Of a stretch of 64,000 nt of DNA, positions 49,325 to 64,000 are shown piece after piece. Both the position numbers and the translations under genes were made by a program. This DNA comes from Akkermansia muciniphila (GTDB lineage: Bacteria; Verrucomicrobiota; Verrucomicrobiia; Verrucomicrobiales; V1-33). The stretch lies in NCBI GenBank assembly GCA_945861415.1, contig CAMAUV010000001.1, forward strand, positions 45,389-109,388, read 5' to 3'. The notes below the pieces were generated by a model. That model was not told the DNA's origin, ran no database searches, and saw only the letters and a list, made by a program, of their open reading frames with translations. Positions within the stretch are counted from its first letter, which is position 1. Every line of letters begins with the position of its first letter.

Positions 49325-50242
49325 TTATCCTCCAGACGTCATTTTGACCGGACGGATCAGTCCTTCCTGATCGTACTCGATTTTCTCCACGGCGATCTTT
49401 CTTCCACCCTGGAGCGGCGAGTTTTTCGACGACGTCTCCCAACGGTGATAAACGATGAACCACTCTCCAGTGTTCGGTTTCTCGACGAAGGAGTGATGGC
49501 CAGGCCCCTGGCGGGTGGCATCGCTTTCCAGGATCTTGCCGCGGTATTCCCACGGGCCGACCGGAGTCGATGATGTCGCATAGTGGACGCAGTAACCTAG
49601 GTTGTTCCACCGCCCCTGGCTGTAGCTGAGGTAGTAGGTATCTCCCCGGCGGTGCATGAAGGGTGCCTCTGTGAAATGCGGCGGCTGGGTTACCGTCACC
49701 TCGCTTTTGAAGCTGATCATGTCCTCCGCCAGTTCAAACACGCGAAGTTTCGACCCTGCGCTGCCGCCGGCGTAGAGCCAGGCCTTGTCGCCTTCCGCGA
49801 ATACCATTGGATCGATCGCCTCGAAGCCATTGCCGCCCGTGAGCAGCGGCTTGCCGCTGTCGGTAAATGGGCCGGCTGGCGAGGTGCCGACCGCCACGCC
49901 GATCCGGCTGGGAGTGGGATTTTGCGGGCCGACTGAGTAGTAGAAGTAGAATCGGCCTTTCTTTTCCGTGATGGCTGGTGCCCACGCTCCGTGCCAGGGC
50001 GCGCCGTCAGCTTTCACCCATGGGACCTGATCGAGGTCGAGGATGGTGCCTTCGCGTTTCCACGTCCGCAGATCCGATGAGCGGTAGGCGGCGAAAATCG
50101 GCCGCCGGGTGTGCGCTTCGGTCGGGTAAATCCAGAAGTCCTTTCCCACCACGCAGATATGAGGGTCCGCACCGTCCATCACGGGGTTTGCGGAAAGCGG
50201 GCAGTTCAGAGCGAGTAAAGCGGCGATGCTGCGGCAGTTCAT
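49325..50242 (-). CDS. glycoside hydrolase family 43
   Basis: The ATG at 50242 gives a signal peptide followed by NPVMDGADPHI...WIYPT. Later blocks are WAPAI...GRFYFYYS and the EAP..H region. Confidence 0.8.
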   Translation of the reverse strand: MNCRSIAALLALNCPLSANPVMDGADPHICVVGKDFWIYPTEAHTRRPIFAAYRSSDLRTWKREGTILDLDQVPWVKADGAPWHGAWAPAITEKKGRFYFYYSVGPQNPTPSRIGVAVGTSPAGPFTDSGKPLLTGGNGFEAIDPMVFAEGDKAWLYAGGSAGSKLRVFELAEDMISFKSEVTVTQPPHFTEAPFMHRRGDTYYLSYSQGRWNNLGYCVHYATSSTPVGPWEYRGKILESDATRQGPGHHSFVEKPNTGEWFIVYHRWETSSKNSPLQGGRKIAVEKIEYDQEGLIRPVKMTSGG

Positions 50243-50394
50243 GTTCCTGTCGATACCTGACGCCTTGCCCCGGTCAAGAACCTTGGGCGTGCCGGAGCCC
50301 GCCACCACCAATTCTCCGGATAACCGCAGATGCGTCGCACTTGAACTTCGACATGGCAGTGTGCTCCATCGCATCCATCAAAGGCTCCGCACTC

Positions 50395-52287
50395 ATGAAA
50401 CTCTCTATCCTCTTCCTGATATTCGCTGCACTCCACCGCGCCGACGCAGCAAAACCCAACGTCATCTACATAATGGCAGACGAACTCGGTTACTACGAGC
50501 CGGGATTCATGGGCGGGAAGACTATCAAAACGCCGAACCTCGACCGCATGGCGAAGGAGGGCATCATTTTCCGCAATCTCTTCGCCGGCTCCTCGGTGTG
50601 CGCGCCGACGCGATGCTCCCTTCTCACCGGTAAACACAGCGGGCACATGTCCGTGCGCTCGAATGGCGGCGGCACGCCGTTGCGCGCGGACGAGACGACC
50701 ATCGCCTCAATGCTGAAGCCCCTGGGCTATGCGACGGGCGGCTATGGCAAATGGGGCTGCGGCGGGCGCGACTCGACGGGTGTGCCGGAGAAGCACGGGT
50801 TCGATGAATTCCTCGGCTATTACGACCAGGTTCACGCGCACACGTTTTTCCCGCCCTACCTCATCCGCAACAGTGAGGAGGTGCCGCTCGCGGGCAACAG
50901 CGGCGGCAGCGCCGGCAAGACCTACTCGCAATACGTCATCCACGACGCGGCGGTGAAGTTCATCCGCGCCAACAAGGACAAGTCGTTCTTCGCCTACCTG
51001 CCCTACACCCCGCCGCATGGCAATTTCGACATTCCCGACACCGATCCAGCATGGGAGTTTTACAAGGACGCGCCGTGGCCCGAACCCGCGCGCCGCTACG
51101 CCGCCATGGCCACGATGCTAGACCGCCAGGTCGGCGAAATCCTCGCGCTGCTGAAGGAACTCGGCCTCGATGAAAACACGCTCGTCTTCTTCAGCGGCGA
51201 CAATGGCGGCGCGAATTATTTCGCGTCGAAGGAATTTCCGCGTGGCGTTCACAGCGCGAACAAGCATCCGGAAACCAGCGTCGAGTATCGTGGCAGCAAG
51301 GGCAGCCTCTACGAAGGCGGCCTGCGCATCCCGTTCATCGCGCGCTGGCCGGGAAAAATCGCCCCGGGCCGTGTGACCGAGCACCTCGGCTACTTTCCTG
51401 ACATCCTGCCGACCATCGCCGAAGTCACGGGAGCCAAAACGCCTGCGGACGTTGATGGCATCAGCATTCTGCCAGAGCTGACCGGCGACAAAGAGGCGGG
51501 CCGCGCACAGAAGCAGCACGAGTTTTTGTATTGGGAAATCAATAACTCGATCGCGATCCGTCAGGACACCTGGCGCGCCGTGCGCCCCAAAGCCAACACG
51601 GCATGGGAACTCTACGACCTCGCAACAGATCCGGGCGAGTCGAAGGATCTCGCGAAGATGAATCCTGATGTGCTCGCAAAACTCACCGCCCTCGCGGAGA
51701 AAGCACACGAGCCGGTGCGCGAGGGTACTTTCTCCAGCACCGACCGCCACAAGCGCGACCAGCGCGCCAAATTTGGGAAGCAGGACGAAGCGGAGGCACC
51801 GAAGAGCAAGGCTAAGAGAAAGAAGAAGGCCGCCGCCGCGATGAAAGTCGAGGGACTGCTTGCGAATGCGGGTTGGAAAATCGTGCGCGCGAGCAGCGAG
51901 AACGTGGACAACCAGAAGTTCGCGGCCAATGCCATCGACGGCGACGTGGACACGCTGTGGCACACGAAGTTTGCGGGTGGAATCACGCCGCCGCCGCACG
52001 AACTGGTGATTGATCTCGGTGCGCAGCGCACCATCCGGGGGTTCGCCTACCTCGCGCGTCAGGACGAAGGATGGAACGGCGCGGTGAAGGACGCTGAGTT
52101 TTGCGTGAGTGATTCGCCGGACAAGTTCGGGCCACCTGTCGCGAAGAGTGCGCTCGCGAAAAGCAAGGAGCCGCAGAAGGTCGAGTGTCCGGCGTGCAAA
52201 GGCCGCTACGTCCTGCTCCGCGCTTTGTCCGCCCATACCGAGGGACAATACGCCACCGCCGCCGAGTTGGGCATCATAGGCGAATAA
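50395..52287 (+). CDS. formylglycine-type sulfatase with a C-terminal F5/8 type C (discoidin) domain
   Basis: The ATG at 50395 gives a signal peptide. Sulfatase motifs are PNVIYIMADELG and SVCAPTRCSLLTGKH. A Lys-rich linker precedes AIDGDVDTLWHTKF...PHELVIDLG... Confidence 0.9.
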   Translation: MKLSILFLIFAALHRADAAKPNVIYIMADELGYYEPGFMGGKTIKTPNLDRMAKEGIIFRNLFAGSSVCAPTRCSLLTGKHSGHMSVRSNGGGTPLRADETTIASMLKPLGYATGGYGKWGCGGRDSTGVPEKHGFDEFLGYYDQVHAHTFFPPYLIRNSEEVPLAGNSGGSAGKTYSQYVIHDAAVKFIRANKDKSFFAYLPYTPPHGNFDIPDTDPAWEFYKDAPWPEPARRYAAMATMLDRQVGEILALLKELGLDENTLVFFSGDNGGANYFASKEFPRGVHSANKHPETSVEYRGSKGSLYEGGLRIPFIARWPGKIAPGRVTEHLGYFPDILPTIAEVTGAKTPADVDGISILPELTGDKEAGRAQKQHEFLYWEINNSIAIRQDTWRAVRPKANTAWELYDLATDPGESKDLAKMNPDVLAKLTALAEKAHEPVREGTFSSTDRHKRDQRAKFGKQDEAEAPKSKAKRKKKAAAAMKVEGLLANAGWKIVRASSENVDNQKFAANAIDGDVDTLWHTKFAGGITPPPHELVIDLGAQRTIRGFAYLARQDEGWNGAVKDAEFCVSDSPDKFGPPVAKSALAKSKEPQKVECPACKGRYVLLRALSAHTEGQYATAAELGIIGE

Positions 52288-52300
52288 CTAGCTCTGTTTC

Positions 52301-55300
52301 ATGCCCGTGTTGATTCATCGCACACTTCCCTTCTTCCTGTTCGCAGCCACGGCCTCGTCGCGTGACGATGTGCCGAACTTCAGTCGCGACATCCTCCCGC
52401 TGATATCCGATAACTGCCTCGCCTGCCACGGCCCGGATGAGAGCCATCGCAAGGCGGACCTCCGGCTGGACACTCGCGAGGGAGCCACGGCGCTGAATGA
52501 CGGCGTCGCCGCCATTGTCCCCGGCAAGCCGCAGGAGAGTGAATTGCTCAAACGGCTCCTTTCTAACGACCCCGACGAGGTGATGCCGCCGCCGGAAGCT
52601 CACAAGAAAAAGCTCACCGCAGAGCAAATCGAATTGATCACCAGCTGGATCGAAGCCGGTGCGCCATGGGGAAAGCACTGGGCGTTTGAGAAGCCGCAAC
52701 GTGAAGCGCAACTGCCCGTCAGCGCCGACAATCCCATCGACGCCTTCGTCCTTGCCCGGCTCAAGGCGGAGAACCTTGCACCATCACCCGAGGCTCCGCG
52801 GCACACGCTGGCGCGGCGGGCAGCTTTCGATCTCACCGGGCTGCCGCCGGCGGCGGAAGTTCTGGCCGCTTTTGAAAAGGATGCCACTCCTGGTGCCTAC
52901 GTTCGTTATGTGGACCAGTTGCTGGCCTCTCCGCATTTTGGCGAGCGCATGGCCATGTGGTGGCTCGATGCTGCGCGCTATGCCGACACCGATGGTTTCC
53001 AGGCTGATTCGAACCGGACCAACTGGCCGTGGCGCGACTACGTGGTGGATGCGTTCAATACAAACAAACCGTTCGATCAATTCACGATCGAGCAGTTCGC
53101 CGGCGACCTGCTTCCCGACGCCACTCCCGAGCAGAAAGTGGCCACCTGCTTTCACCGCAATCACATGACGAACGGCGAAGGCGGGCGTGACCCGGAGGAA
53201 TCACGCGTGGACTATGTGATCGACCGGGTGAATACCACCGGTACGCTCTGGCTCGGGCTCACGCTCGGCTGCACGCAGTGCCACTCGCACAAGTTCGATC
53301 CCATCTCGCATAGCGACTACTACTCGCTGACCGCATTCTTTAACAGCATCGACGAGGATGGGAGAGCCGGGAACGACGCCAAGCCCTATCTCTCCTACAA
53401 GTCCCCGCTCGCCGCACGCGCTGTGCAGGAAGCGCAACTCCTGGTGAATGAACGCAAACCCCGCGAAGTCGCAGCGCGAAAAGCTGCAGAGACTCCGTTC
53501 GCCGGGTGGTTGGACGCGCGCTGGGCGGAAGTGCGCGAAGGATTCACCGCGTGGCATCCGGTGATCGTGTCCGAACTCGAATCAATCGAGGGCACGGAAC
53601 TCACGCAGACACCGGATGGCACCGTGCTCGCGGGTGGTCCAAATCCACGCCACGACGACTACCGCCTGGCCGCGCCGGTGAAGCTGCCGCGCATTACGGG
53701 TCTGAAACTCGAGGTTCTTCCGCACGCTTCAAACACCGGTGGCGCGCTCGCGCGGGGCAGCTCTGGCGAATTCATCCTCACCGACATCAAGGTGCAGGTC
53801 CGGCGCCGCGGCAGCTCGCAAATCCGGGACATCACGGTGTCGGGCGCGGTGGCCGATGCATCTGCAGAGCAGAAGGGCGCGCGCGATTATGGCGATATCA
53901 AAGGAGTGCTCGACGACGACCCGCGCAACGGATGGACGACAAAGGGTCTCGATCCAAAGAAGCCTTACAGCGCAGTTTTCGAGTTCGAGGAGCCTCTAGT
54001 GCTGGATGCGGATGAGGAACTCGTCTTTGAAATGCGCCAGCGCTCCACATCAGGCGACGCGAACATCGGCTGCTTCCGCGTGTCCGTGACCGACCAGGCG
54101 GGCGAAGCCGTGCGCAGTATCGAAGTCGCGCCGCTGGAGCGATTGGCGAATGCGAAGCTCTCGGATCTCTCTCAACTCGATGCGAAACTGTGTGCGAAGC
54201 TATTCGAGCAGTTCCTCGCCGACCATGAGCCCTATCAGATTGAGCGGTCCTCATGGGACCGGGCGACGCGCCAGTTGAATGAGGTAAAGAAGAGCGCCGG
54301 CGCATTGAACGTGATGGTGCTCGCCGGGCGCAAGGAGCCACGGGAAACGCATGTGCTCATTCGCGGAGTATGGGACAAGAAAGGGGAAAAGGTCGGACCC
54401 GGCGTGCCGCCCGCCGTGGCACCGTGGCCGGAAAACCAGGATAAGACGCGAGCCGGTCTGGCCCGCTGGCTCGTCTCGCGTGAGAACCCGCTCACCGCGC
54501 GCGTCATTGTAAATCACCTCTGGCAGATGTGCTTCGGCGCCGGACTGGTGCGAACGCCGGATGATTTCGGCCTGCAAGGGGAGCGACCCACGCACCCAGA
54601 GTTGCTCGACTGGCTCGCCGTCGAATTCATGGAGAGCGGCTGGGATGTGAAGCACATCCTGAAGCTCATCGTGACGAGTGCGACGTATCGGCAGTCGTCC
54701 TCCGTGACGCCGGCGATGCTTGCGCGCGACCCGGAGAACCGCCTGCTCGCGCGCGCTTCGCGATTCCGTCTGCCGAGCTGGATGCTGCGCGACGCCGCGC
54801 TCGCCAATGCCGGTCTGCTGAATCCCGCGCTCGGCGGTCCGCCTGTTAAGCCGTATCAGCCGGATGGGGTGTGGGAGGAAATGTTCATGGGCCGTTTCCG
54901 CTACGAGCCCAGCGAAGGCGCGGCGCAATACCGCCGCACGCTCTACGCCTTCTGGAGGCGGGCCATCGCCCCCACCTTCCTGTTCGACAACGCTCAGCGC
55001 CGCGTTTGTGAGGTCGGCAACGCCCGCACGAATACCCCGCTCCATGCGCTCACGCTGCTCAATGACGCCGGCTACCTCGAAGCCTCCCGCGCCCTAGCTG
55101 CACACTCTCTCCGCGCCACCGACCCGCTGCGGGAGATGACGCGCCGGGTGCTGGGCCGCGAGCCGACTGCGCAGGAGAGCACCGTGCTCCAGCGTGAAAG
55201 GGATCGCGCCCTCAGCCACTATCGTTCGCATCCCGATGATGCCGCAAAGTTCCTCGCCATTGGCCAGATGCCGCCCGATTCCACTCTGAACGCTGCGGAG

Positions 55301-55366
55301 CTCGCCGCGCACACAACGGTCGCCAGCCTCATCCTGAACCTCGATGAAACCATCACCCATGAATGA
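52301..55366 (+). CDS. PSCyt1 + PSCyt2/DUF1549 + PSD1/DUF1553 protein (planctomycete-type cytochrome c domain protein)
   Basis: CLACH is encoded at 52415-52429 in [20 protein letters not shown]. The DUF1549-type block is [12 protein letters not shown]. The DUF1553-type block is [36 protein letters not shown]. Confidence 0.9.
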   Translation: [1021 protein letters not shown]

Positions 55367-56804
55367 CCCGCTGCAATCCACCCGCCGCTACTTCTTGGGC
55401 CAATGCACCGGTGTCTCGCTCGGCGCCATGGCTCTGTCCTCGCTGCTTGGAGGCAGTGCTGGCGCCACGACGGAGTCCGCGGACGCCACCGGCCTGCCTG
55501 GCTTTCCGCATTTCGCCCCAAAGGCGAAGCGCGTCATTTTCCTCACTCAGTCCGGCGGGCCGTCACAGATCGAACTCTTCGATGAAAAACCCGGCCTCGC
55601 CAAATGGGCCGGCATCGAGCTGCCCGATTCCGTCCGCCAGGGCCAGCGCCTCACGACGATGACGTCTTCGCAGAAGCAACTCATCATGCCGGCGCGGACA
55701 AAGTTTGAGCGCTGTGGCAAGAGCGGCGCGACCATCGGCGAATGGCTGCCGCACCTTCGCGGAATCGCGGACGATTTGTGTTTCATCAAGTCCATGCAAA
55801 CGGACGAGATCAATCACGCCCCGGCGATGACGAAGTTCCTCACTGGCCACCAGCTTCCCGGGCGCCCGAGCATGGGAGCATGGATGAGCTACGGTCTCGG
55901 CAGCACGAATCGCAACCTGCCGGACTTCCTCGTCCTGATTTCCAAATTGCAGCGTCCGAGCGACCAACCGCTCTACGACCACTACTGGGGCAGCGGGTTC
56001 CTTCCTTCGCGCTACCAGGGGGTGAAACTGCGCAATGCGAAGGATCCCGTCCTCTATCTCCGGGACCCCGACGGCCTGCCGCGCGAACTCCGTCGCGGGA
56101 TGCTCGACGGGCTCGGAGAATTGAATCAGATGCGTCTCGCCGAAACGGGTGACCCGGAAATCGCCACGCGCATTCGCCAATATGAAATGGCGTATCGCAT
56201 GCAGAGCAGCGTGCCGGAATTGACTGACCTCAGCGACGAGCCGGATTCCACCTTTGCTCTCTACGGCCCAGATTCGCGGCGCCCCGGCAGCTATGCCGCG
56301 AACTGCATCCTCGCGCGCCGGCTCGCCGAGCGCGGTGTGCGTTTTATCCAGCTCTTCCATCCCGACTGGGATCATCACAGCCGCCTGCCGTCGTGGTGCG
56401 TCGCGCGCTGCCGCGATACCGACCAGCCCAGCACAGCGCTCATCAAGGACCTCAAACAGCGCGGCCTGCTCGACGACACTCTGGTGATCTGGGGAGGCGA
56501 ATTCGGACGCGGCGTGGCCGGCCAGGGCAAGTGGGACAGCCTCGAAGCCGGACGCGACCATCACCCGCGCTGCTTCACCATGTGGATGGCGGGCGGCGGC
56601 GTGAAGCCCGGCACCACCTACGGCGCCACTGACGACTTCAGCTACAACGTTGCCGAGAATCCCGTCCACGTGCGCGATCTGCACGCCACCGTGATGCGAT
56701 TGCTCGGCATCGATCACGAACGTTTCACCTTCCGCAGTCAGGGCCTGGACTTCCGCCTCACCGGCGTGGAAAAAGCGAACGTAGTGAAGGGCATTCTGGC
56801 GTGA
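55359..56804 (+). CDS. DUF1501 (sulfatase-fold) protein with a Tat-like signal
   Basis: TRRYFLGQCTGVSLGAMAL is Tat-like. Blocks GGPSQIELFDEKP and GGEFGRG...GRDHHP fit DUF1501. The start overlaps the upstream stop by 8 nt; an alternative ATG is at 55344. Confidence 0.9.
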   Translation: MNDPLQSTRRYFLGQCTGVSLGAMALSSLLGGSAGATTESADATGLPGFPHFAPKAKRVIFLTQSGGPSQIELFDEKPGLAKWAGIELPDSVRQGQRLTTMTSSQKQLIMPARTKFERCGKSGATIGEWLPHLRGIADDLCFIKSMQTDEINHAPAMTKFLTGHQLPGRPSMGAWMSYGLGSTNRNLPDFLVLISKLQRPSDQPLYDHYWGSGFLPSRYQGVKLRNAKDPVLYLRDPDGLPRELRRGMLDGLGELNQMRLAETGDPEIATRIRQYEMAYRMQSSVPELTDLSDEPDSTFALYGPDSRRPGSYAANCILARRLAERGVRFIQLFHPDWDHHSRLPSWCVARCRDTDQPSTALIKDLKQRGLLDDTLVIWGGEFGRGVAGQGKWDSLEAGRDHHPRCFTMWMAGGGVKPGTTYGATDDFSYNVAENPVHVRDLHATVMRLLGIDHERFTFRSQGLDFRLTGVEKANVVKGILA

Positions 56805-56904
56805 ACAGGCAACCGGCGCTGCGTGAGGACTTGCGATTTTATTGCACAAACCGCAAAGTTCGGCTGTAACATTCCCTCTATACACATCCCCCGGCTATTA
56901 CACC

Positions 56905-58629
56905 ATGAAACGAACTCTATCCACTCCCGGGGCCAAATGGCTCGCGTCTCTGCTGCTGCTAACTTCCCTCTTTGGCTCCGCCTTCTGCCGGGCGGCCACA
57001 AAGCCCAACGTCGTCATCATCCTCTCTGACGACATGGGATACTCGGACATCGGCTGCTATGGTTCAGAAATCGCCACGCCGAGTCTGGACGCACTGGCGA
57101 AGAATGGCCTGCGCTTCACCCAGTTCTACAATGGCGCTCGCTGTTGTCCCACCCGCGCCTCGTTGCTCACCGGCTTGTATGCGCATCAGGCCGGCATCGG
57201 CTTGATGGAGGGTGACTCTGGCTTCGATGGTTATCGGGGAGAACTGAGCCGGAAGGCGGTCACGGTGGCCGAGGTGCTGCGGCCCGCCGGTTATCGCACC
57301 TACATGAGCGGCAAGTGGCATGTCACTTCCGCCAAGGGACCGAAGGCGGATAACTCGAATTGGCCCGTTCAGCGGGGCTTTAATCGCTTCTACGGAACCA
57401 TCGCCGGTGCGGGCAGTTTCTACGACCCGGCCACGCTTTGCCGCGACAATAAGTTCATCACCCCGGTCAACGATCCGGAATACGAACCAAAGCGGTATCA
57501 CTACACCGATGCCATCAGCGACAACGCGGTGAAGTTTATGGAAGATCACGGCAAGCAACATGCCGAACAGGCCCTTTTTCTATACGTCGCCTACACGAGC
57601 GCCCACTGGCCGATGCACGCGTGGCCGGAGGACATCGCCAGATACAAGGGCCGTTATGACGCCGGCTACGACACCATCCGCCAGGCGCGGTTCAAACGGG
57701 CGCGCGAACTCGGTGTGATCGATCCGCGCTGGAAGATGTCCCCCACGGCAGGCAATTGGGACAGCGTCAGAGACCGCGAGTGGGAAATCCAATGCATGGA
57801 AGTCTATGCCGCGATGGTTGAGGCCATGGACCGCGGCATCGGGCGCATCGTCGCCGAGTTGAAACGGCAAGGCCGACTGGAAAACACGCTGTTCGTCTAT
57901 CTGCAGGACAACGGCGGTTGCTCTGAGGGCCTTGGCCGGAAGTCAAATGCCGATGAGGTTAAAGACAAGGTCTTCAAGCTCATAGGGCCGGACGAGTTCC
58001 AAACGAAAATCTGGCCACCGATGCAGACCCGCGATGGCCGTCCGGTCTTGACCGGCCCGGGAGTCGCTCCCGGTGGCGAGGACACTTACATCGCCTATGG
58101 CGGCGGCTGGGCCAATGTCTCGAACACGCCATTCCGTGGATACAAGCATGATGGCCTGGAAGGCGGCATCAGCACGCCATTTATCGTCCACTGGCCGGCG
58201 GGAACTCCCGAGTCGCGACGCAATGCCGTGGTCAACTCCCCCGCCCATCTCATCGACCTGATGGCCACCTGCGTGGACGTCTCCAAGGCGGACTATCCAA
58301 AGGAGTTCAAAGCCGAGAACATCAAGCCGCTGGAAGGCGTCAGCCTCATGCCCGCGTTCCTCGGCAGAGACTTGCAGCGGACCGCCCCGCTCGCATGGGA
58401 GCACCACGGCAACAGTGCCTTGCGCGACGGCAAATGGAAGATTGTCACAGAATACCGGGACAACCAGCCCACGAAATGGGAACTCTACGACATGGACGCC
58501 GACCGCACCGAACTGTACGACCTCGCCGCCGCGCACCCGGAAAAGATGAAGGAACTCGTCGCCGAATGGCAAGCTTGGGCGGATCGTGTTGGCGTGCAGC
58601 CCTGGCCGCTGAAACGCGCCGCCAAATAG
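56905..58629 (+). CDS. arylsulfatase (formylglycine type)
   Basis: The ATG at 56905 gives a signal peptide. Sulfatase motifs are PNVVIILSDDMGYSD and ARCCPTRASLLTG. Confidence 0.9.
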   Translation: MKRTLSTPGAKWLASLLLLTSLFGSAFCRAATKPNVVIILSDDMGYSDIGCYGSEIATPSLDALAKNGLRFTQFYNGARCCPTRASLLTGLYAHQAGIGLMEGDSGFDGYRGELSRKAVTVAEVLRPAGYRTYMSGKWHVTSAKGPKADNSNWPVQRGFNRFYGTIAGAGSFYDPATLCRDNKFITPVNDPEYEPKRYHYTDAISDNAVKFMEDHGKQHAEQALFLYVAYTSAHWPMHAWPEDIARYKGRYDAGYDTIRQARFKRARELGVIDPRWKMSPTAGNWDSVRDREWEIQCMEVYAAMVEAMDRGIGRIVAELKRQGRLENTLFVYLQDNGGCSEGLGRKSNADEVKDKVFKLIGPDEFQTKIWPPMQTRDGRPVLTGPGVAPGGEDTYIAYGGGWANVSNTPFRGYKHDGLEGGISTPFIVHWPAGTPESRRNAVVNSPAHLIDLMATCVDVSKADYPKEFKAENIKPLEGVSLMPAFLGRDLQRTAPLAWEHHGNSALRDGKWKIVTEYRDNQPTKWELYDMDADRTELYDLAAAHPEKMKELVAEWQAWADRVGVQPWPLKRAAK

Positions 58630-58662
58630 ACTGGTAAAAATCGATTATCCTACGCGAGGACG

Positions 58663-59118
58663 TCAGGCTCTCTGACCCGTGAACACACGGATGATATGTG
58701 AACGCGGGCTGCGACGAGGCGGGCTTTTTTCAATATTGATGGTGAGCCCGGTCTCTGTGCTGCTTAGATTGAAGGTGGCCGTGTTCTCGTTAGCCTCGAC
58801 AATCTTCAGCGGGATGTTGCAAGTGAGGCGGACGTGGGGCGTGTTGCTCTTTTCGTTGATACGGTTGTGGACTCGGTTGGTGCATCTGAGCCAGTTCTGG
58901 TCGCCGACCATCTCTACCGGAAGATAGAACCTTGAGACTATGAAGGGCGCGCAGATTATTGTGAGTCCAGAGTGGCGGACTGGCGGAAGCACATTAGGAT
59001 TGCGGGTTTCAATCTTGGCCCCACTCTTGCGCTCGATAAAACCCAAATGATCAGGCAAATCCACACCCCGGCAAGTCCGCTTCGATGGGCCGGGTTTGGA
59101 GTTGCGCGAGTTAATCAT
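58663..59118 (-). CDS. hypothetical protein (151 aa) in a visibly lower-GC patch
   Basis: This is the longest ORF in the interval and starts with ATG. No family is recognised, so coding status is uncertain. Confidence 0.35.
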   Translation of the reverse strand: MINSRNSKPGPSKRTCRGVDLPDHLGFIERKSGAKIETRNPNVLPPVRHSGLTIICAPFIVSRFYLPVEMVGDQNWLRCTNRVHNRINEKSNTPHVRLTCNIPLKIVEANENTATFNLSSTETGLTINIEKSPPRRSPRSHIIRVFTGQRA

Positions 59119-59126
59119 TTAATGCT

Positions 59127-59681
59127 ATGAGTAAATCGCTTCTTGCATCCACTTACGCCCCGCGGCTGTCGGACCGGAAGGCCTGCGTGTCGGCGGCACA
59201 TGTTAAGGCGAGGTTGTCAGTAAACCGCGAGTTGATTTCCCCTTTCTGGTACATTGGGCGGGAGATTCTGAATTCGCCGAAAGCTGGAGGCCGGGGAACG
59301 AAGGTTGTTGAACGACTGGCGAAGGACGTGGCAGCGGAGTTCCCGGAAATGGGCGGGTTTGCTTACACGAACGTGAAGCGGATGCGCACATTCGCTGAAG
59401 CGAATGAGGCCATCGAAATTAGCCCACAGGCTGTGGGCCTATTGAAGGCTTCGAAGGTGGAAAGCGGAATTGGGTCAAGAAACGGCGAAGCCGGTGCGAA
59501 AGGCAAAAGTGCAGGCTTCATGGTGGATCCCGACCCTGAATTCGTCCGGCTCTGGATTCGCCATCAAGGCAGGGTGGCGCTCTACGTCTCGTTGATGCCG
59601 CGCTCTGCCTCTACCCGCACTGCGAGGCGACACCGAATTATACATCTCCTTAACCAAATTCCGCAGCACCAACAACTATGA
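59127..59681 (+). pseudogene. truncated DUF1016/YhcG-like (PDDEXK nuclease family) gene; only the N-terminal domain is recognisable
   Basis: VNRELISPFWYIGREIL...GRGTKVVERLAKDVAAEFPEMGGFAYTNVKRMRTFAE matches the YhcG N-terminal pattern (VN.EL..YW.IG..I...WG..V.E.L..DL..EFP...GFS..NL..MR.F). Recognisable sequence stops after about 100 aa, and the 184-aa ORF lacks the C-terminal nuclease domain. Confidence 0.55.
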
Positions 59682-61257
59682 AAAAAACCGGGAAACCTGA
59701 TTTCATTCACCTTTTCGTCATCCTGCTTTTCTTCGTTTCCATAGCGACGATCGCCCCGGCCGCCGATTGGAACCGCTTTCGTGGGCCGAACGGTTCAGGG
59801 GTGGCGGAGGGATGTCAGCCACCGATGCTGTTGGGTAAGGATTGTCAGGCGTGGCGTGTGCCCGTCCCGCCGGGCCTGTCGTCGCCCGCACTCTCCGGCG
59901 ACCGCACTCTCCGGCGACCGCACTCTCCGGCGACCGCATCTTCCTCACCGCTGAGAAGGAGGGCGAACTGCTGACGCTCGCATTTGACAAGGCGGACGGA
60001 AAGGAACTTTGGCGACGCGTCTCACCCGCAAAGGCAACCGAGAAAGTCCACCGCGCTGCCAGCCAAGCGTCACCGACGCCTCTGGTCGATGGAGAGCGCG
60101 TCATTGTGTATTTCGGATCTTACGGATTGCTGTGCTACGGCCACAATGGGGAGGAGCTTTGGAAGAAGCCGATTCCAACGCCACAGACCTTGTATGGCAT
60201 GGCCACCTCGCCGATCGGGTTCGGGAACACGGTCATCATGGTGCTGGACGACGACCGGGACTTGCCGGACAGTAAATTGAGCCGGTCGAAGGTCATCGCC
60301 CTCGACAAGGTAACGGGAAACGAAGTGTGGGAGACGGCGCGTCCGTTCTCTCGCAGCGGATGGTCCACTCCGATCATCTGGAACCACAAGGATGGGACAG
60401 ATCTCGCTATCCTGGGACAAGGCAGGCTCGATGGCTACGACCCGGCCACCGGCAAAGGGAAGTGGTACGCCACCGGCTTCTCGCACGAAACGATCGCTGT
60501 CCCCGTTGCGAACCGTGATCACGTCTTCGGATCTTCATCACGGCGAGGTGGTGATGGCGATGCCGACACCGACCCGAAGCCATTCTGGCAATCGATCCTG
60601 CCTTTCGACGAAGACAAGAACGGGAAGATCGAGCGGACGGAAATGAAGCCACCATTCACGTTCCCTTTTCGACCGGAACTTCCGATCGGCCATCCGGGTT
60701 TCGGATTTCCCATGCCGGATAACCTAAAGGATCGGGAGGAGCGCGTGGACTGGATCCTCAGCTGGTTCGACAAGGATAAGGACCGTGCCTGGAGCCAAGA
60801 GGAGTTCATGCAGGGCTTTAAGAAAAAGCCCGGCGAGCCGCTCCTCATGGCGGTTCGTCCCGGCGGATCGGGTGATGTCACCGAGTCTCACGCAAGCTGG
60901 TCTGCGAACAGCCATATCCCCGAGATTCCCTCTCCGCTTCTCCACGACGGCATTCTCTATCTCATCCGGGCAGGTGGTGTCCTCGCAGCGATGGATGCCA
61001 CGAACGGGGAGATGTTCTATCGCGAAAGAGTTGATGCACTCGGCGGCCAGTGCGCAGCATCCCCCGTCTGCGCCAATGATCACGTTTACCTCGTCTCCAC
61101 TCCCGGTGTCATCTCCGTTGTCGCGACTGGAAAAAATTTCAGGGAAATCCACTCCCACGAACTCGGCGAGCCGACTGAGACTACCCCCGCCATCGACCGG
61201 AATTCGATCTACATCCGCACAGAGAAGCACCTGATCGCCTTCCGCAGCAAAAAGTGA
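59678..61257 (+). pseudogene. PQQ-like beta-propeller protein with an internal EF-hand pair, frameshifted by a 16-bp tandem triplication
   Basis: Track ORFs 59678..59974 and 59842..61257 are the two halves. With a single repeat copy the frames join as ...GLSSPALSGDRIFLTAEKEG..., giving one 515-aa ORF. The N-terminal ADWNRFRGPNGSG is typical of the family. Confidence 0.8.
59886..59938. repeat. direct tandem repeat, 16-bp unit GCACTCTCCGGCGACC x3 plus partial copies
   Basis: Exact copies lie at 59888-59903, 59904-19 and 59920-35, flanked by partial matches (CC before, GCA after). The unit length is not a multiple of 3. Confidence 0.95.
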
Positions 61258-61334
61258 AAAATTCTCCGGCAGGTGGGGAACTCGACGGGAATAGTAGGGT
61301 GAATCACCGGCTACACAGTAGCCGGCCTGTTGCT

Positions 61335-61865
61335 ATGGATGAAGAAAAAGAAGCCGAATTCATGGGATTGTTCGTCACGCACGAGCCCGAATTGCGGGCT
61401 TTTCTTCGCACGCTCCTGCCCAGCTGGGAGGCGGTGGATGACGTGCTTCAGGAGGCCAGCGTGGTGATGTGGAAGAAGCTCGATCAGCTTGAGGACGAGG
61501 AGGGATTCCTGCCATGGGCGAAGGTGATCCTGCGCTTCAAGGCGATGCATGCACGGCGCACCGCTGCGCGCGATCGCCTCGTCCTGAGTGAGGAGACGGT
61601 GGCACTGCTGGCCGAGGAGGCGCTCGATTTGGAGCCGGATCAAATGGGCAGAGAACGTAAAGCGCTGGACGCTTGCTTGCAGAAACTCTCCAATGAGAAT
61701 CGGGAGCTCGTTCTCTTGCCGTATCGCAGGCCGGGCGGGTTGACCGAACTGGCGCAGCAGACCAGCCGCTCGTCCAACAGCCTTTACAAGCTGCTCGGCC
61801 GCCTGCGTGAGAAGCTGCGACTTTGTGTGGAGCGCGAACTTGCTTCAGGAGGAGCGCGCCTATGA
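61335..61865 (+). CDS. ECF sigma-70 factor (Rhodopirellula/Verrucomicrobium-type)
   Basis: The protein reads FMGLFVTHEPELRAFLRTLLPSWEAVDDVLQEASVVMWKK and has a C-terminal region 4 (SNSLYKLLGRLREKL). An alternative GTG start at 61254 overlaps the upstream stop. Confidence 0.85.
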   Translation: MDEEKEAEFMGLFVTHEPELRAFLRTLLPSWEAVDDVLQEASVVMWKKLDQLEDEEGFLPWAKVILRFKAMHARRTAARDRLVLSEETVALLAEEALDLEPDQMGRERKALDACLQKLSNENRELVLLPYRRPGGLTELAQQTSRSSNSLYKLLGRLREKLRLCVERELASGGARL

Positions 61866-63178
61866 ACGAGGACAGGTCAGGCGAACTCGTCCAGAGCTAC
61901 TTTCTCGGTTCGATCTCGGACGACGAGGTGGCGGAGCTCGATCGGCGCTTGAAGGAGGATGCGACCGTGCGCGCACTGTTCGCGGCAACCGCACGGCTGG
62001 AAACCAATCTGCGTGATGCGGCCTCGAGTGTGCCCACCGCCAGTGAGGCTCCCCGGCAGGTCGCTCGCCGCCCAAGGCGCCACCTTTTGATCGGACTTGG
62101 GGCTGCTGCGGCGATCACACTCAGCGCGATTCTTGTTTCTCAATTCCGCCCCGGCTCATCTCCTCAACCGATCGCGCGAGTTGCCGAGTTGAGCGGAACG
62201 GTCACTTGGATCGCGGATGGCAGGCAGGAGGATGAGCGCCTGGGGGATGGTGCTGAATTGACCGGTGGCACGCTCGAGGTCTCCTCTCAGGATTCCTGGG
62301 CCGAGGTGGTCTTCAGAGACGGTTCCATCGTTTGGGTGTCTGGTCCCGCCGTGGTGACCCTCTCAGATGGAGAGGCTGGCAAGCTGATCCGTGTCCGGGA
62401 AGGCTATCTGTCCCTCGATGTGTTACCGCAGCCGCCGGACAAACCGATGCGGGTGACCACGCCATCGGCCGAGGCAGTCGTGCTAGGCACTCAGTTCAAC
62501 ATCTCAGCGAACTCGAGCTCGACGAGCCTCACGGTGAACGAAGGTCAGGTCCGCGTAACGCGGCTCGCTGACGGAAGTGTCCAGGAGGTCGGTGCCGACC
62601 AACGCGTCGTCGCGGCGTTGGAACAGGAAAGCCAGTTCGAGGCCCGTCCACGTGGCGAACACGTGCGGATCTGGAAGAGCGAGCTTCCTCGCGATGCGCG
62701 ACAGGGTGAATGGAAGCCAGGAGACGTTGGGAGGGCTGGGGCGTTGCGAGCCGAGGCACACCTCTTCCGAGGTGACCACGGGGAGCAAATCGATCCCATC
62801 CTGCTGCATACTGCGGTGTTGGGACCCTCCGTCGGGGCAATGTCCCCAGTTCTGCTCAGCGAGGGGGCACGCTTCCGAATCCATGGAAGGCTTGATCGGA
62901 GCTTTCGCGTGAACTTTGGGTTCGGAACGCATCACGCACGCGGCGGGTTTTCGGGCAAGTTTGCGACCGAGCGCGAGATCGAGATCGATCAGAATGCCGA
63001 GGGGCTTTTCGAGATCGAGTTCTCCGTCGATGAGTTCCCGCGCATGAGGAGTCGCTTCCCTGAGTCCGCCGTCGGCCATGAACTGGTCTGGTTCTGGATC
63101 CAGACACCCAGAAAGGACGTGGGCTTGCAAGTATTCGGTGTCGAGCTCACCTCACCGGAAGAACCTTCGAAGCGCTAG
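61862..63178 (+). CDS. FecR-family anti-sigma factor / transmembrane sensor
   Basis: An ATGA overlap links it to the sigma gene. The N-terminal anti-sigma helix is YFLGSISDDEVAELDRRLKED. A TM segment LLIGLGAAAAITLSAILV follows. The FecR beta-domain is TTPSAEAVVLGTQFNISA...LTVNEGQVRV. Confidence 0.85.
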   Translation: MNEDRSGELVQSYFLGSISDDEVAELDRRLKEDATVRALFAATARLETNLRDAASSVPTASEAPRQVARRPRRHLLIGLGAAAAITLSAILVSQFRPGSSPQPIARVAELSGTVTWIADGRQEDERLGDGAELTGGTLEVSSQDSWAEVVFRDGSIVWVSGPAVVTLSDGEAGKLIRVREGYLSLDVLPQPPDKPMRVTTPSAEAVVLGTQFNISANSSSTSLTVNEGQVRVTRLADGSVQEVGADQRVVAALEQESQFEARPRGEHVRIWKSELPRDARQGEWKPGDVGRAGALRAEAHLFRGDHGEQIDPILLHTAVLGPSVGAMSPVLLSEGARFRIHGRLDRSFRVNFGFGTHHARGGFSGKFATEREIEIDQNAEGLFEIEFSVDEFPRMRSRFPESAVGHELVWFWIQTPRKDVGLQVFGVELTSPEEPSKR

Positions 63179-63187
63179 GCAGACAAT

Positions 63188-64000
63188 ATGAAGCAAGCCA
63201 TTTTCAAACACAGCCTGTGGGCATCAGTGACGATCAGTGCCTTTTTCATCGGGCAACGCATGTCGGATTCGCTGAGCAACCCGAACGCCGGGGAGCCGCA
63301 GCAACGGCACAGGAGCCTCTCCACGTCCTCAAACGGGACTACTTCGGCCACCGCGACCGACGCAAGGTTGTTTGACCCCAGCTCAAGCAGCGCGCGAGCC
63401 GGAGGGGACAAAGCGCACGGGTCGCTAGGCTCCGACCCACTTTCGCAGGAAATGATCGAATCTTTGGTCAGAGCCTCCATCAAGTCTGGCAGTCCGCTGG
63501 ATCGCCGGCTGGCCTTCGATAATATCCTTCGGGAGATGCAATCTCCCGGCTTCACGACGGAGCAAGCCATGGCGATTCGGAATGCGATGCTCAAGGGTGG
63601 CGCAAACGAAGAGGATTTGAAGCTCTTCGATTACGCATGGGCAGCGAAAAATCCGGATGCTGCGTTGGCTTATCTCAAGGAGATCCCGGAGCAGCAGCGC
63701 TACGCATTCCTCAACAACATGCTTCCAGGACTGGCGAGCCAGAATCCCCGGATGGCGATCGATCTCTTCAAATCGTTGGAACCCGAGTTGCAGACCAGAA
63801 CCCGGCCCAGGTTCCTCGAAGGGCTCGTCGATAACGATGCGGAGGTCGCTACAGACTATCTTTACAAATCCACTGACGCAGAGAACTACAACTGGCGTCC
63901 CATGGACGAACTGGCTCGGGAACTGGTGCGAGACCGGGGTCTGGACGCAACCCTGGAGTGGGCCGGGGAGCTTCCGGATGGTCCCCTGCGGGGTAGCGCC
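63188..64000 (+). CDS. membrane-anchored hypothetical protein with a helical-repeat-like body (3' end outside the window)
   Basis: The ATG at 63188 lies 9 nt after the FecR stop. The frame is open to the window edge (271 codons by my manual translation). The N-terminal TM is SLWASVTISAFFIG. The ORF is absent from the track because it has no stop; track ORF 63175..63594 (-) is its shadow. Confidence 0.6.
   Translation, partial: MKQAIFKHSLWASVTISAFFIGQRMSDSLSNPNAGEPQQRHRSLSTSSNGTTSATATDARLFDPSSSSARAGGDKAHGSLGSDPLSQEMIESLVRASIKSGSPLDRRLAFDNILREMQSPGFTTEQAMAIRNAMLKGGANEEDLKLFDYAWAAKNPDAALAYLKEIPEQQRYAFLNNMLPGLASQNPRMAIDLFKSLEPELQTRTRPRFLEGLVDNDAEVATDYLYKSTDAENYNWRPMDELARELVRDRGLDATLEWAGELPDGPLRGSA

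Follow-up and report, generated by a model that had tools for sequence, protein, structure and literature searches.

Two perfect tandem copies of a sequence easily gain or lose units by slipped-strand mispairing (misalignment mutagenesis), and phase-variable repeats located within open reading frames (ORFs) typically lie near the 5' end. Phase variation of the pneumococcal capsule by duplication is said to go back to the work of Waite et al. in 2001 and 2003. As later papers describe it, spontaneous tandem duplication in the pneumococcal capsule genes cap3A, cap8E/wchA and tts gives the OFF state and reversion the ON state (PMC11163986, PMC4243769, PMC4022640). Simple-sequence-repeat contingency loci, as in Neisseria, Haemophilus and Campylobacter, are built from units of 1-9 nt in many copies, with tracts that persist across strains and mutate in both directions at high rate (PMC4700210). 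In Mycobacterium tuberculosis, longer tandem repeats are polyphyletic across strains and present as subpopulations at frequencies of 10^-2 to 10^-3 (PMC12817950). The locus described here adds a further case to a known class of mutation, a segregating, unstable, frame-shifting duplication, and its host is an uncultivated freshwater Verrucomicrobiales bacterium.

We analysed a 64-kb stretch of DNA, here called the window, in which a 16-nt repeat interrupts a beta-propeller gene. The features needed to follow the analysis are these, in window coordinates:

59127..59681, + strand: upstream neighbour, a DUF1016_N-only ORF of 184 aa whose stop overlaps the propeller ATG
59678..61257, + strand: the whole disrupted gene, which with one copy of the unit encodes a 515-aa PQQ_2/BamB-like 8-bladed beta-propeller, predicted to be exported, with an internal EF-hand pair
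59678..59974, + strand: 5' fragment ORF of the three-copy allele, 98 aa, with N-terminus MKKTGKPDFIHLFVILLFFVSIATIAPAAD, out of frame after ...SSPALSGDR
59842..61257, + strand: 3' fragment ORF of the three-copy allele, 471 aa from TTG 59842, without the signal peptide and native residues 1-70
59886..59938, + strand: perfect tract of period 16 in which GCACTCTCCGGCGACC stands three times in full, preceded by the shared CC and followed by GCA
61335..61865, + strand: downstream neighbour, an ECF-type sigma factor (Sigma70_r2) of 176 aa, 78 nt past the propeller stop
61862..63178, + strand: FecR-like anti-sigma gene, which carries SNPs at 62112 and 62247

Read directly from the window, positions 59870-59945 are ccgggcctgtcgtcgccc-GCACTCTCCGGCGACC-GCACTCTCCGGCGACC-GCACTCTCCGGCGACC-gcatcttcctcacc. 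The exact 16-nt unit thus occurs in three tandem copies at 59888-59935, with starts at 59888, 59904 and 59920, flanked by tcgtcgccc 5' of the first copy and gcatcttcc 3' of the third, and the pentamer CCGCA recurs within the tract at 59886, 59902, 59918 and 59934. Tandem Repeats Finder returned the same array, 53 nt in total (59886-59938, period 16, 3.3 copies, 100% matches), with a score of 106; the second-best array in the 64-kb window scored 46. The run of lag-16 identity in the array spans 37 consecutive positions, compared with a maximum of 15 in the rest of the window and 14 for the longest run in 100 first-order Markov simulations, and the array is therefore not a product of chance. The unit, its coordinates and its three exact copies are as the original prediction, made from the sequence of the window, had described them. 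Scans for promoters and terminators gave hits at shuffle level only.

A unit of 16 nt does not divide into whole codons, and alleles with two or three copies are therefore out of frame. We rebuilt alleles in silico by copy number: one copy gave a full-length product of 515 aa and four copies one of 531 aa, whereas alleles with 0, 2, 3 or 5 copies met an early stop at 82-102 aa. The frame shifts at codon 77, and translation ends at 86 aa with two copies and at 98 aa with three. Removing two units from the window restores the one-copy junction, GLSSPALSGDRIFLTAEKEG. These reconstructions agree with the earlier frame arithmetic, in which one or four copies were in frame and two or three out, and with the two fragment ORFs listed above, both of which are present at 98 and 471 aa; the repaired 515-aa protein and its junction were likewise reproduced, and an identical protein is found in public data.

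Pfam matched the one-copy product to PQQ_2 (E 6.5e-22, 78.8 bits against a gathering cut-off of 27.6) and, weakly, to the EF-hand. A profile built from 39 homologues matched BamB chains, and its residues ~296-372 matched EF-hand calcium sensors. The AlphaFold2 model made from this alignment (pLDDT 86.4, pTM 0.82) retrieved tetrathionate hydrolase, BamB and YxaL in Foldseek, with E values of 6e-18 to 1e-14. By its Pfam score and modelled fold, the product is assigned to the PQQ_2/BamB-like 8-bladed propeller superfamily. It appears to share with these three proteins the 8-bladed PQQ-like fold and the repeat motif, and it differs from BamB in its low identity (11-15% over the Foldseek matches), in its inserted EF-hand pair and in being encoded next to sulfatases. 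BamB proper was rejected, as scores fell far below the equivalog cut-offs (47.6 bits against 285.2 for TIGR03300, 33.3 against 423 for NF008351), and so was a PQQ-dependent alcohol dehydrogenase (TIGR03075, 22.8 bits against a cut-off of 480). More than 2,000 matches make this a large family, whose named members come mostly from Verrucomicrobiota and Planctomycetota. The N-terminus resembles a Sec signal peptide, with a charged N-region, a hydrophobic helix at residues 9-23 in the model and an A-x-A motif. Since the ORF that remains in the two- and three-copy alleles lacks this signal peptide and residues 1-70, we infer that both alleles are nulls, that is, OFF.

In the window strain, the propeller gene lies between a sulfatase and the ECF sigma/FecR pair. 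In the nearest species, known from contig L009, its orthologue lies between two sulfatases, which suggests that the conserved association is with sulfatase genes and not with the sigma factor. An operon logic with the ECF sigma/FecR pair was rejected on the same comparison, as the L009 orthologue is flanked by sulfatases with no sigma factor. The wider locus (49678-64000 together with contigs L012 and L014) encodes a GH43 protein, two sulfatases, a PSCyt1/PSCyt2/PSD1 and DUF1501 pair, the ECF sigma/FecR pair and a giant PQQ_2-ankyrin protein, a gene content typical of a PVC-type glycan-degradation neighbourhood. Between 58630 and 59665 stand an orphan 151-aa minus-strand ORF and the 184-aa ORF that holds only the DUF1016 N-terminal part. 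Neither has a counterpart beside the L009 orthologue, where the upstream sulfatase is inverted, and these ORFs may be what is left of an insertion or a rearrangement.

Public data contain an allelic series at this site. Once two copies are deleted from the window, the resulting 515-aa protein matches P0121 in a public protein collection residue for residue. At 90% identity, the cluster of P0121 has only two further members: P0001 (468 aa) and P0122 (461 aa), the latter the product of a two-copy allele. For the census of contigs we used as handles the upstream DUF1016_N ORF, which is independent of the repeat allele, and the downstream ECF-type sigma factor. P0121 itself is encoded on at least nine contigs, and the alleles are distributed as follows:

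One copy: ERZ27280257, ERZ27280224, ERZ27280310, ERZ27265269, ERZ27265270
One copy: SRR15198247, SRR15198275, ERR4405442, and the NCBI MAG GCA_947484705.1
Two copies: ERZ27280287, ERZ27265271, ERZ27280264, ERZ27280294 (at least four assemblies)

Independent samples are fewer than contigs, as some of the ENA (ERZ) assemblies may share runs with Logan contigs. Runs SRR15198238-275 come from Spanish lakes and reservoirs (PRJNA721863; PMC10581226). Exact-pattern scans of genome contigs and of JGI metagenome contigs gave no match, which indicates that the strain is not a GTDB representative. Variation in copy number, which the original prediction had proposed to look for among reads, is present among near-identical genomes, where one, two and at least three copies occur.

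Repeat aside, contigs carrying different alleles are almost indistinguishable. Over 14.3 kb, the two-copy contig L012 is free of differences from the window, and so are the one-copy contigs L002 and L017 over 4.9 and 7.1 kb, respectively. Between the flanks of alleles with one, two and at least three copies, 0-3 SNPs were counted per 14-21 kb; the most divergent contig, L015 (GCA_947484705.1), has 8 SNPs in 21.5 kb. Throughout these comparisons, which extend up to 21.5 kb, the repeat is the sole indel. The SNPs at 62112 and 62247 in the FecR-like gene mark two haplotypes. On the C/A background we found one copy (L002, L017), two copies (L012, L013) and at least three (the window, L033); the T/T background has one copy in L014, and L034 from ERR3719150 shows there the signature of at least three. 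As one-, two- and three-copy alleles share a single C/A haplotype, the repeat events postdate almost all point substitutions, and as the series arose in a lineage with essentially no other substitutions, the repeat site mutates much faster than its background.

The same contigs yielded several observations apart from the repeat. The haplotype-marking SNPs lie 135 nt apart and are both nonsynonymous (A84V, D129V), with about one other SNP in 21 kb, a pattern that suggests a small tract of recombination or else selection acting on the anti-sigma factor. Clonality in this population is striking, as only 0-8 SNPs in 21 kb separate runs of several accession prefixes (SRR15198xxx, ERR3719150, ERR4405442 and ERR58631xx). 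The population also carries a second, unrelated loss-of-function polymorphism in L015, where a C>A SNP at window position ~51006 (L014 position 1329) splits a 644-aa sulfatase/F5_F8_type_C gene (~50353-52287) into 217 and 393 aa. Several independent short contigs, namely L016, L017 and the Logan contigs from which L033 and L034 derive, stop at one place, L014 position ~16930, beyond the 3' end of the window and within a 1599-aa PQQ_2/ankyrin gene, which suggests a further assembly-breaking repeat or variable site.

We consider it probable (roughly 0.72) that the array is a real and recent tandem duplication whose copy number is still changing in a near-clonal natural population, and that it arose by accident and is not an evolved tract. 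The ancestral gene held one 16-nt segment bracketed by the 5-nt direct repeat CCGCA, and replication slippage between the two CCGCA sites may have led from one copy to two. The resulting perfect repeat of 32-37 nt, once formed, would be open to slipped-strand mispairing and so to expansion to at least three copies. The frame shift would then remove a BamB-like, EF-hand propeller, predicted to be exported and encoded among sulfatase genes. Loss of copies would restore the wild-type sequence exactly, which would make the array reversible in principle, a mutational toggle.

Counting the CCGCA pair with its spacing of 16, the gene has 60 comparable pairs, with 11 longer ones. An exceptional microhomology hotspot is ruled out by this count, and CCGCA alone does not explain why the duplication occurred at this site. 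With microhomology so unremarkable, the first duplication step was probably rare. DNA of the array region folded no better than its shuffles (z = 0.04) and showed no unusual secondary structure; a hairpin or quasi-palindrome was accordingly discarded as the cause of the duplication, and plain slippage fits.

The main alternative is an evolved contingency switch, in which selection keeps the repeat and the propeller is toggled ON with one copy, or perhaps four, and OFF with two or three. The gain might lie, for example, in escape from phage or grazers that recognise the propeller, or in cost saved where the sulfated-glycan substrate is missing. We regard this as unlikely. Copy number does vary against a near-clonal background, and at codon 71 of 515 the tract lies close to the 5' end of the ORF, yet the ON state is a single copy and hence offers no standing tract on which high-rate mutation could act. 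In ~7 of ~17 sampled assemblies, including several datasets from different sequencing projects, the assembled (majority) form is an OFF allele, and the 90% cluster consists of the three repeat alleles only, with no other loss-of-function allele of the gene recorded. The presence of an expanded allele on two SNP backgrounds could mean recurrent expansion, but recombination across 2.2 kb or mixed-strain contigs would account for it just as well. Together, the frequency of OFF alleles and the second background are more than a simply deleterious accident predicts, and this leaves room for selection.

Orthologues weigh against a maintained tract. All of those inspected, at 73-82% identity with one further sequence at 59%, have a single copy of the motif GLSSPVLSxxxxFLTA. 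The closest different species, a Verrucomicrobiales MAG (L009) at 88% identity and the sole close relative from a protein-based contig scan, also has one copy; its DNA at the site reads GCACTCTCCCAGGACCGACTC, in which the second CCGCA, and with it the microhomology, is missing. As every orthologue inspected carries one copy, this is the ancestral state, and a standing repeat tract is absent from the family. An orthologue alignment had been proposed with the original prediction, and its outcome is that relatives at 73-88% identity are single-copy. The standing, conserved, short-unit tract expected of a contingency locus is thus replaced here by a single copy in most assemblies and in all orthologues at 73-88% identity.

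Contingency loci are also expected to have more than one in-frame repeat number, and here one copy is the only ON number seen. Exact look-ups in a collection of 15 billion proteins found no product of 0, 4, 5, 6 or 7 copies and no N-terminal fragment of the two-copy allele, so that the further in-frame forms, with four and seven copies, are absent from it. P0002 (531 aa), a candidate for the four-copy allele by its length, was rejected: its additional residues are C-terminal and it has one copy of the motif, so the length is a coincidence. In the AlphaFold2 model, the duplicated codons correspond to A71-R76, which form strand 71-73, a turn at G74-D75 and the first part of strand 76-83, a core beta-hairpin modelled with a block pLDDT of 95-96. 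These residues are flanked by invariant G66, S68, S69 and P70 on one side and by F78 and L79 (at least 90% conserved) and invariant T80 on the other. The conserved propeller strand that had been proposed at the repeat site is thus apparent in the alignment of 39 homologues. A four-copy allele, though in frame, would insert 16 residues into this hairpin.

One-copy and duplicated forms coexist on a shared SNP haplotype, with the repeat as their only difference, and in these data a revertant is indistinguishable from the ancestor. Reversion and use as an adaptive switch are plausible, and a one-copy allele may instead be the ancestor. A working switch, which we hold as a tentative idea, would mean that planktonic cells toggle the propeller of a sulfated-glycan locus, predicted to be exported and calcium-binding, by slippage. 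OFF alleles would then rise to majority in some lakes or seasons, under phage, grazers or absence of substrate, and exact revertants would restore the gene; duplication-type phase variation would in that case be visible in environmental metagenomes, outside host-associated pathogens.

There is only a slight chance that the three-copy allele retains its function, whether because translation restarts at GTG 59851 or TTG 59842 or because the ribosome shifts frame. The 471-aa downstream ORF stays open, AAGGA lies ~10 nt upstream of GTG 59851, and the public gene call P0001 is this 3' fragment started at that GTG, giving 468 aa. The product, however, would lack not only the signal peptide but all of residues 1-70, which hold eleven invariant positions (W31, R35, G36, G41, P48, P49, W59, G66, S68, S69 and P70), and with them strand 57-62 of the AlphaFold2 model. 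By inspection only, no slippery heptamer was seen in 59886-59974.

An assembly or sequencing artefact, by which the true genome would have one copy and the assembler would have made the extra units, is very unlikely, as the array of 53 nt is shorter than both a short read and the final k-mer of the assembly. Typical short reads are longer than 53 nt, and 'k141' in contig names stands for the final MEGAHIT k-mer. The exact three-copy gene product P0001 is recorded from a single contig, that of the window's own assembly; against this, at least four ENA assemblies independently give two copies, and L033, which like L034 derives from a 6,731-nt Logan contig, matches the window over 3,657 nt with no difference.

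Logan contigs provide separate evidence for at least three copies. In ERR5863118 and ERR5863101 they break off after 28 nt of the array, and in ERR5863101 and ERR3719150 they start with its last 27 nt. All 31-mers within a Logan accession are distinct by construction (PMC12424806), and for this reason an array of at least three copies cannot fit into one Logan contig. De Bruijn graphs at k=31 were simulated, both for single alleles with 1-5 copies and for mixed alleles. Pure one- or two-copy alleles were read through and mixtures with the one-copy allele broke at +19/-18, whereas the observed breakpoints at +28/-27 need an allele of at least three copies. This signature requires reads across at least 47 nt of periodic sequence. 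These results show that three sequencing runs (ERR5863118, ERR5863101 and ERR3719150) carry at least three copies, independently of the window's assembler, and that contig breakpoints at k=31 are a usable trick for inferring a copy number of three or more.

A fixed, decaying pseudogene, dead throughout its lineage and with the triplication as one lesion among others, has next to no probability: the gene is interrupted in the window, but it has no other lesion, yields a protein identical to a public intact allele once 32 nt are removed, and occurs intact in DNA of the same SNP haplotype that shows no further difference. That outcome, which the original prediction had named as contradicting its view, is rejected by the intact alleles in near-identical DNA. 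From the three readings that had been offered at the outset, the recent inactivating duplication stands, with instability as part of it, the assembly artefact falls, and the reversible switch is plausible.

Frameshifted genes in MAGs are usually dismissed as pseudogenes or assembly errors, and this lesion is a real allelic series of one, two and at least three copies. Public assemblies alone suffice to show that the series segregates in a near-clonal wild population. The unstable duplication that we favour makes the array a PCR-sized marker for slippage dynamics, and possibly for ON/OFF selection, in an uncultivated freshwater bacterium. Were OFF alleles to track environment or season, duplication-type phase variation as known from pathogens would reach into free-living plankton, and a selectable role would be indicated for a very large Verrucomicrobiota/Planctomycetota propeller family. 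The locus becomes more interesting still if reads show heterogeneity within samples or reversion.

Compared with known systems, the locus has features of several. As in the longer tandem repeats of M. tuberculosis, units expand and contract, and there too detection came from comparison of assemblies and reads (PMC12817950); those repeats lie in promoters and tune expression, whereas the repeat described here lies in an ORF and shifts its frame. With simple-sequence-repeat contingency loci it has in common that intragenic copy number near the 5' end sets the reading frame and that alleles differ among otherwise identical genomes (PMC4700210), and it departs from them in its 16-nt unit, its one-copy ON allele and its relatives without a tract.

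The closest precedent is duplication phase variation of the pneumococcal cap3A type. At both loci a perfect tandem duplication within an ORF would turn the gene off, here with two- and three-copy alleles that stop at 86 and 98 aa. Exact loss of the pneumococcal duplication gives the wild type, and loss of copies would do so here. In both cases the ON state has no repeat tract, and the duplication spans tens of bases and is not a microsatellite of 1-6 nt. Pneumococcal duplications vary in position and length and their switching was measured in culture and biofilm, whereas the array described here is a single duplication that expands to at least three copies and is known from sequences of an uncultivated bacterium alone. 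Its setting also differs: the host is a free-living freshwater bacterium, and the interrupted gene encodes a propeller and not a capsule protein.
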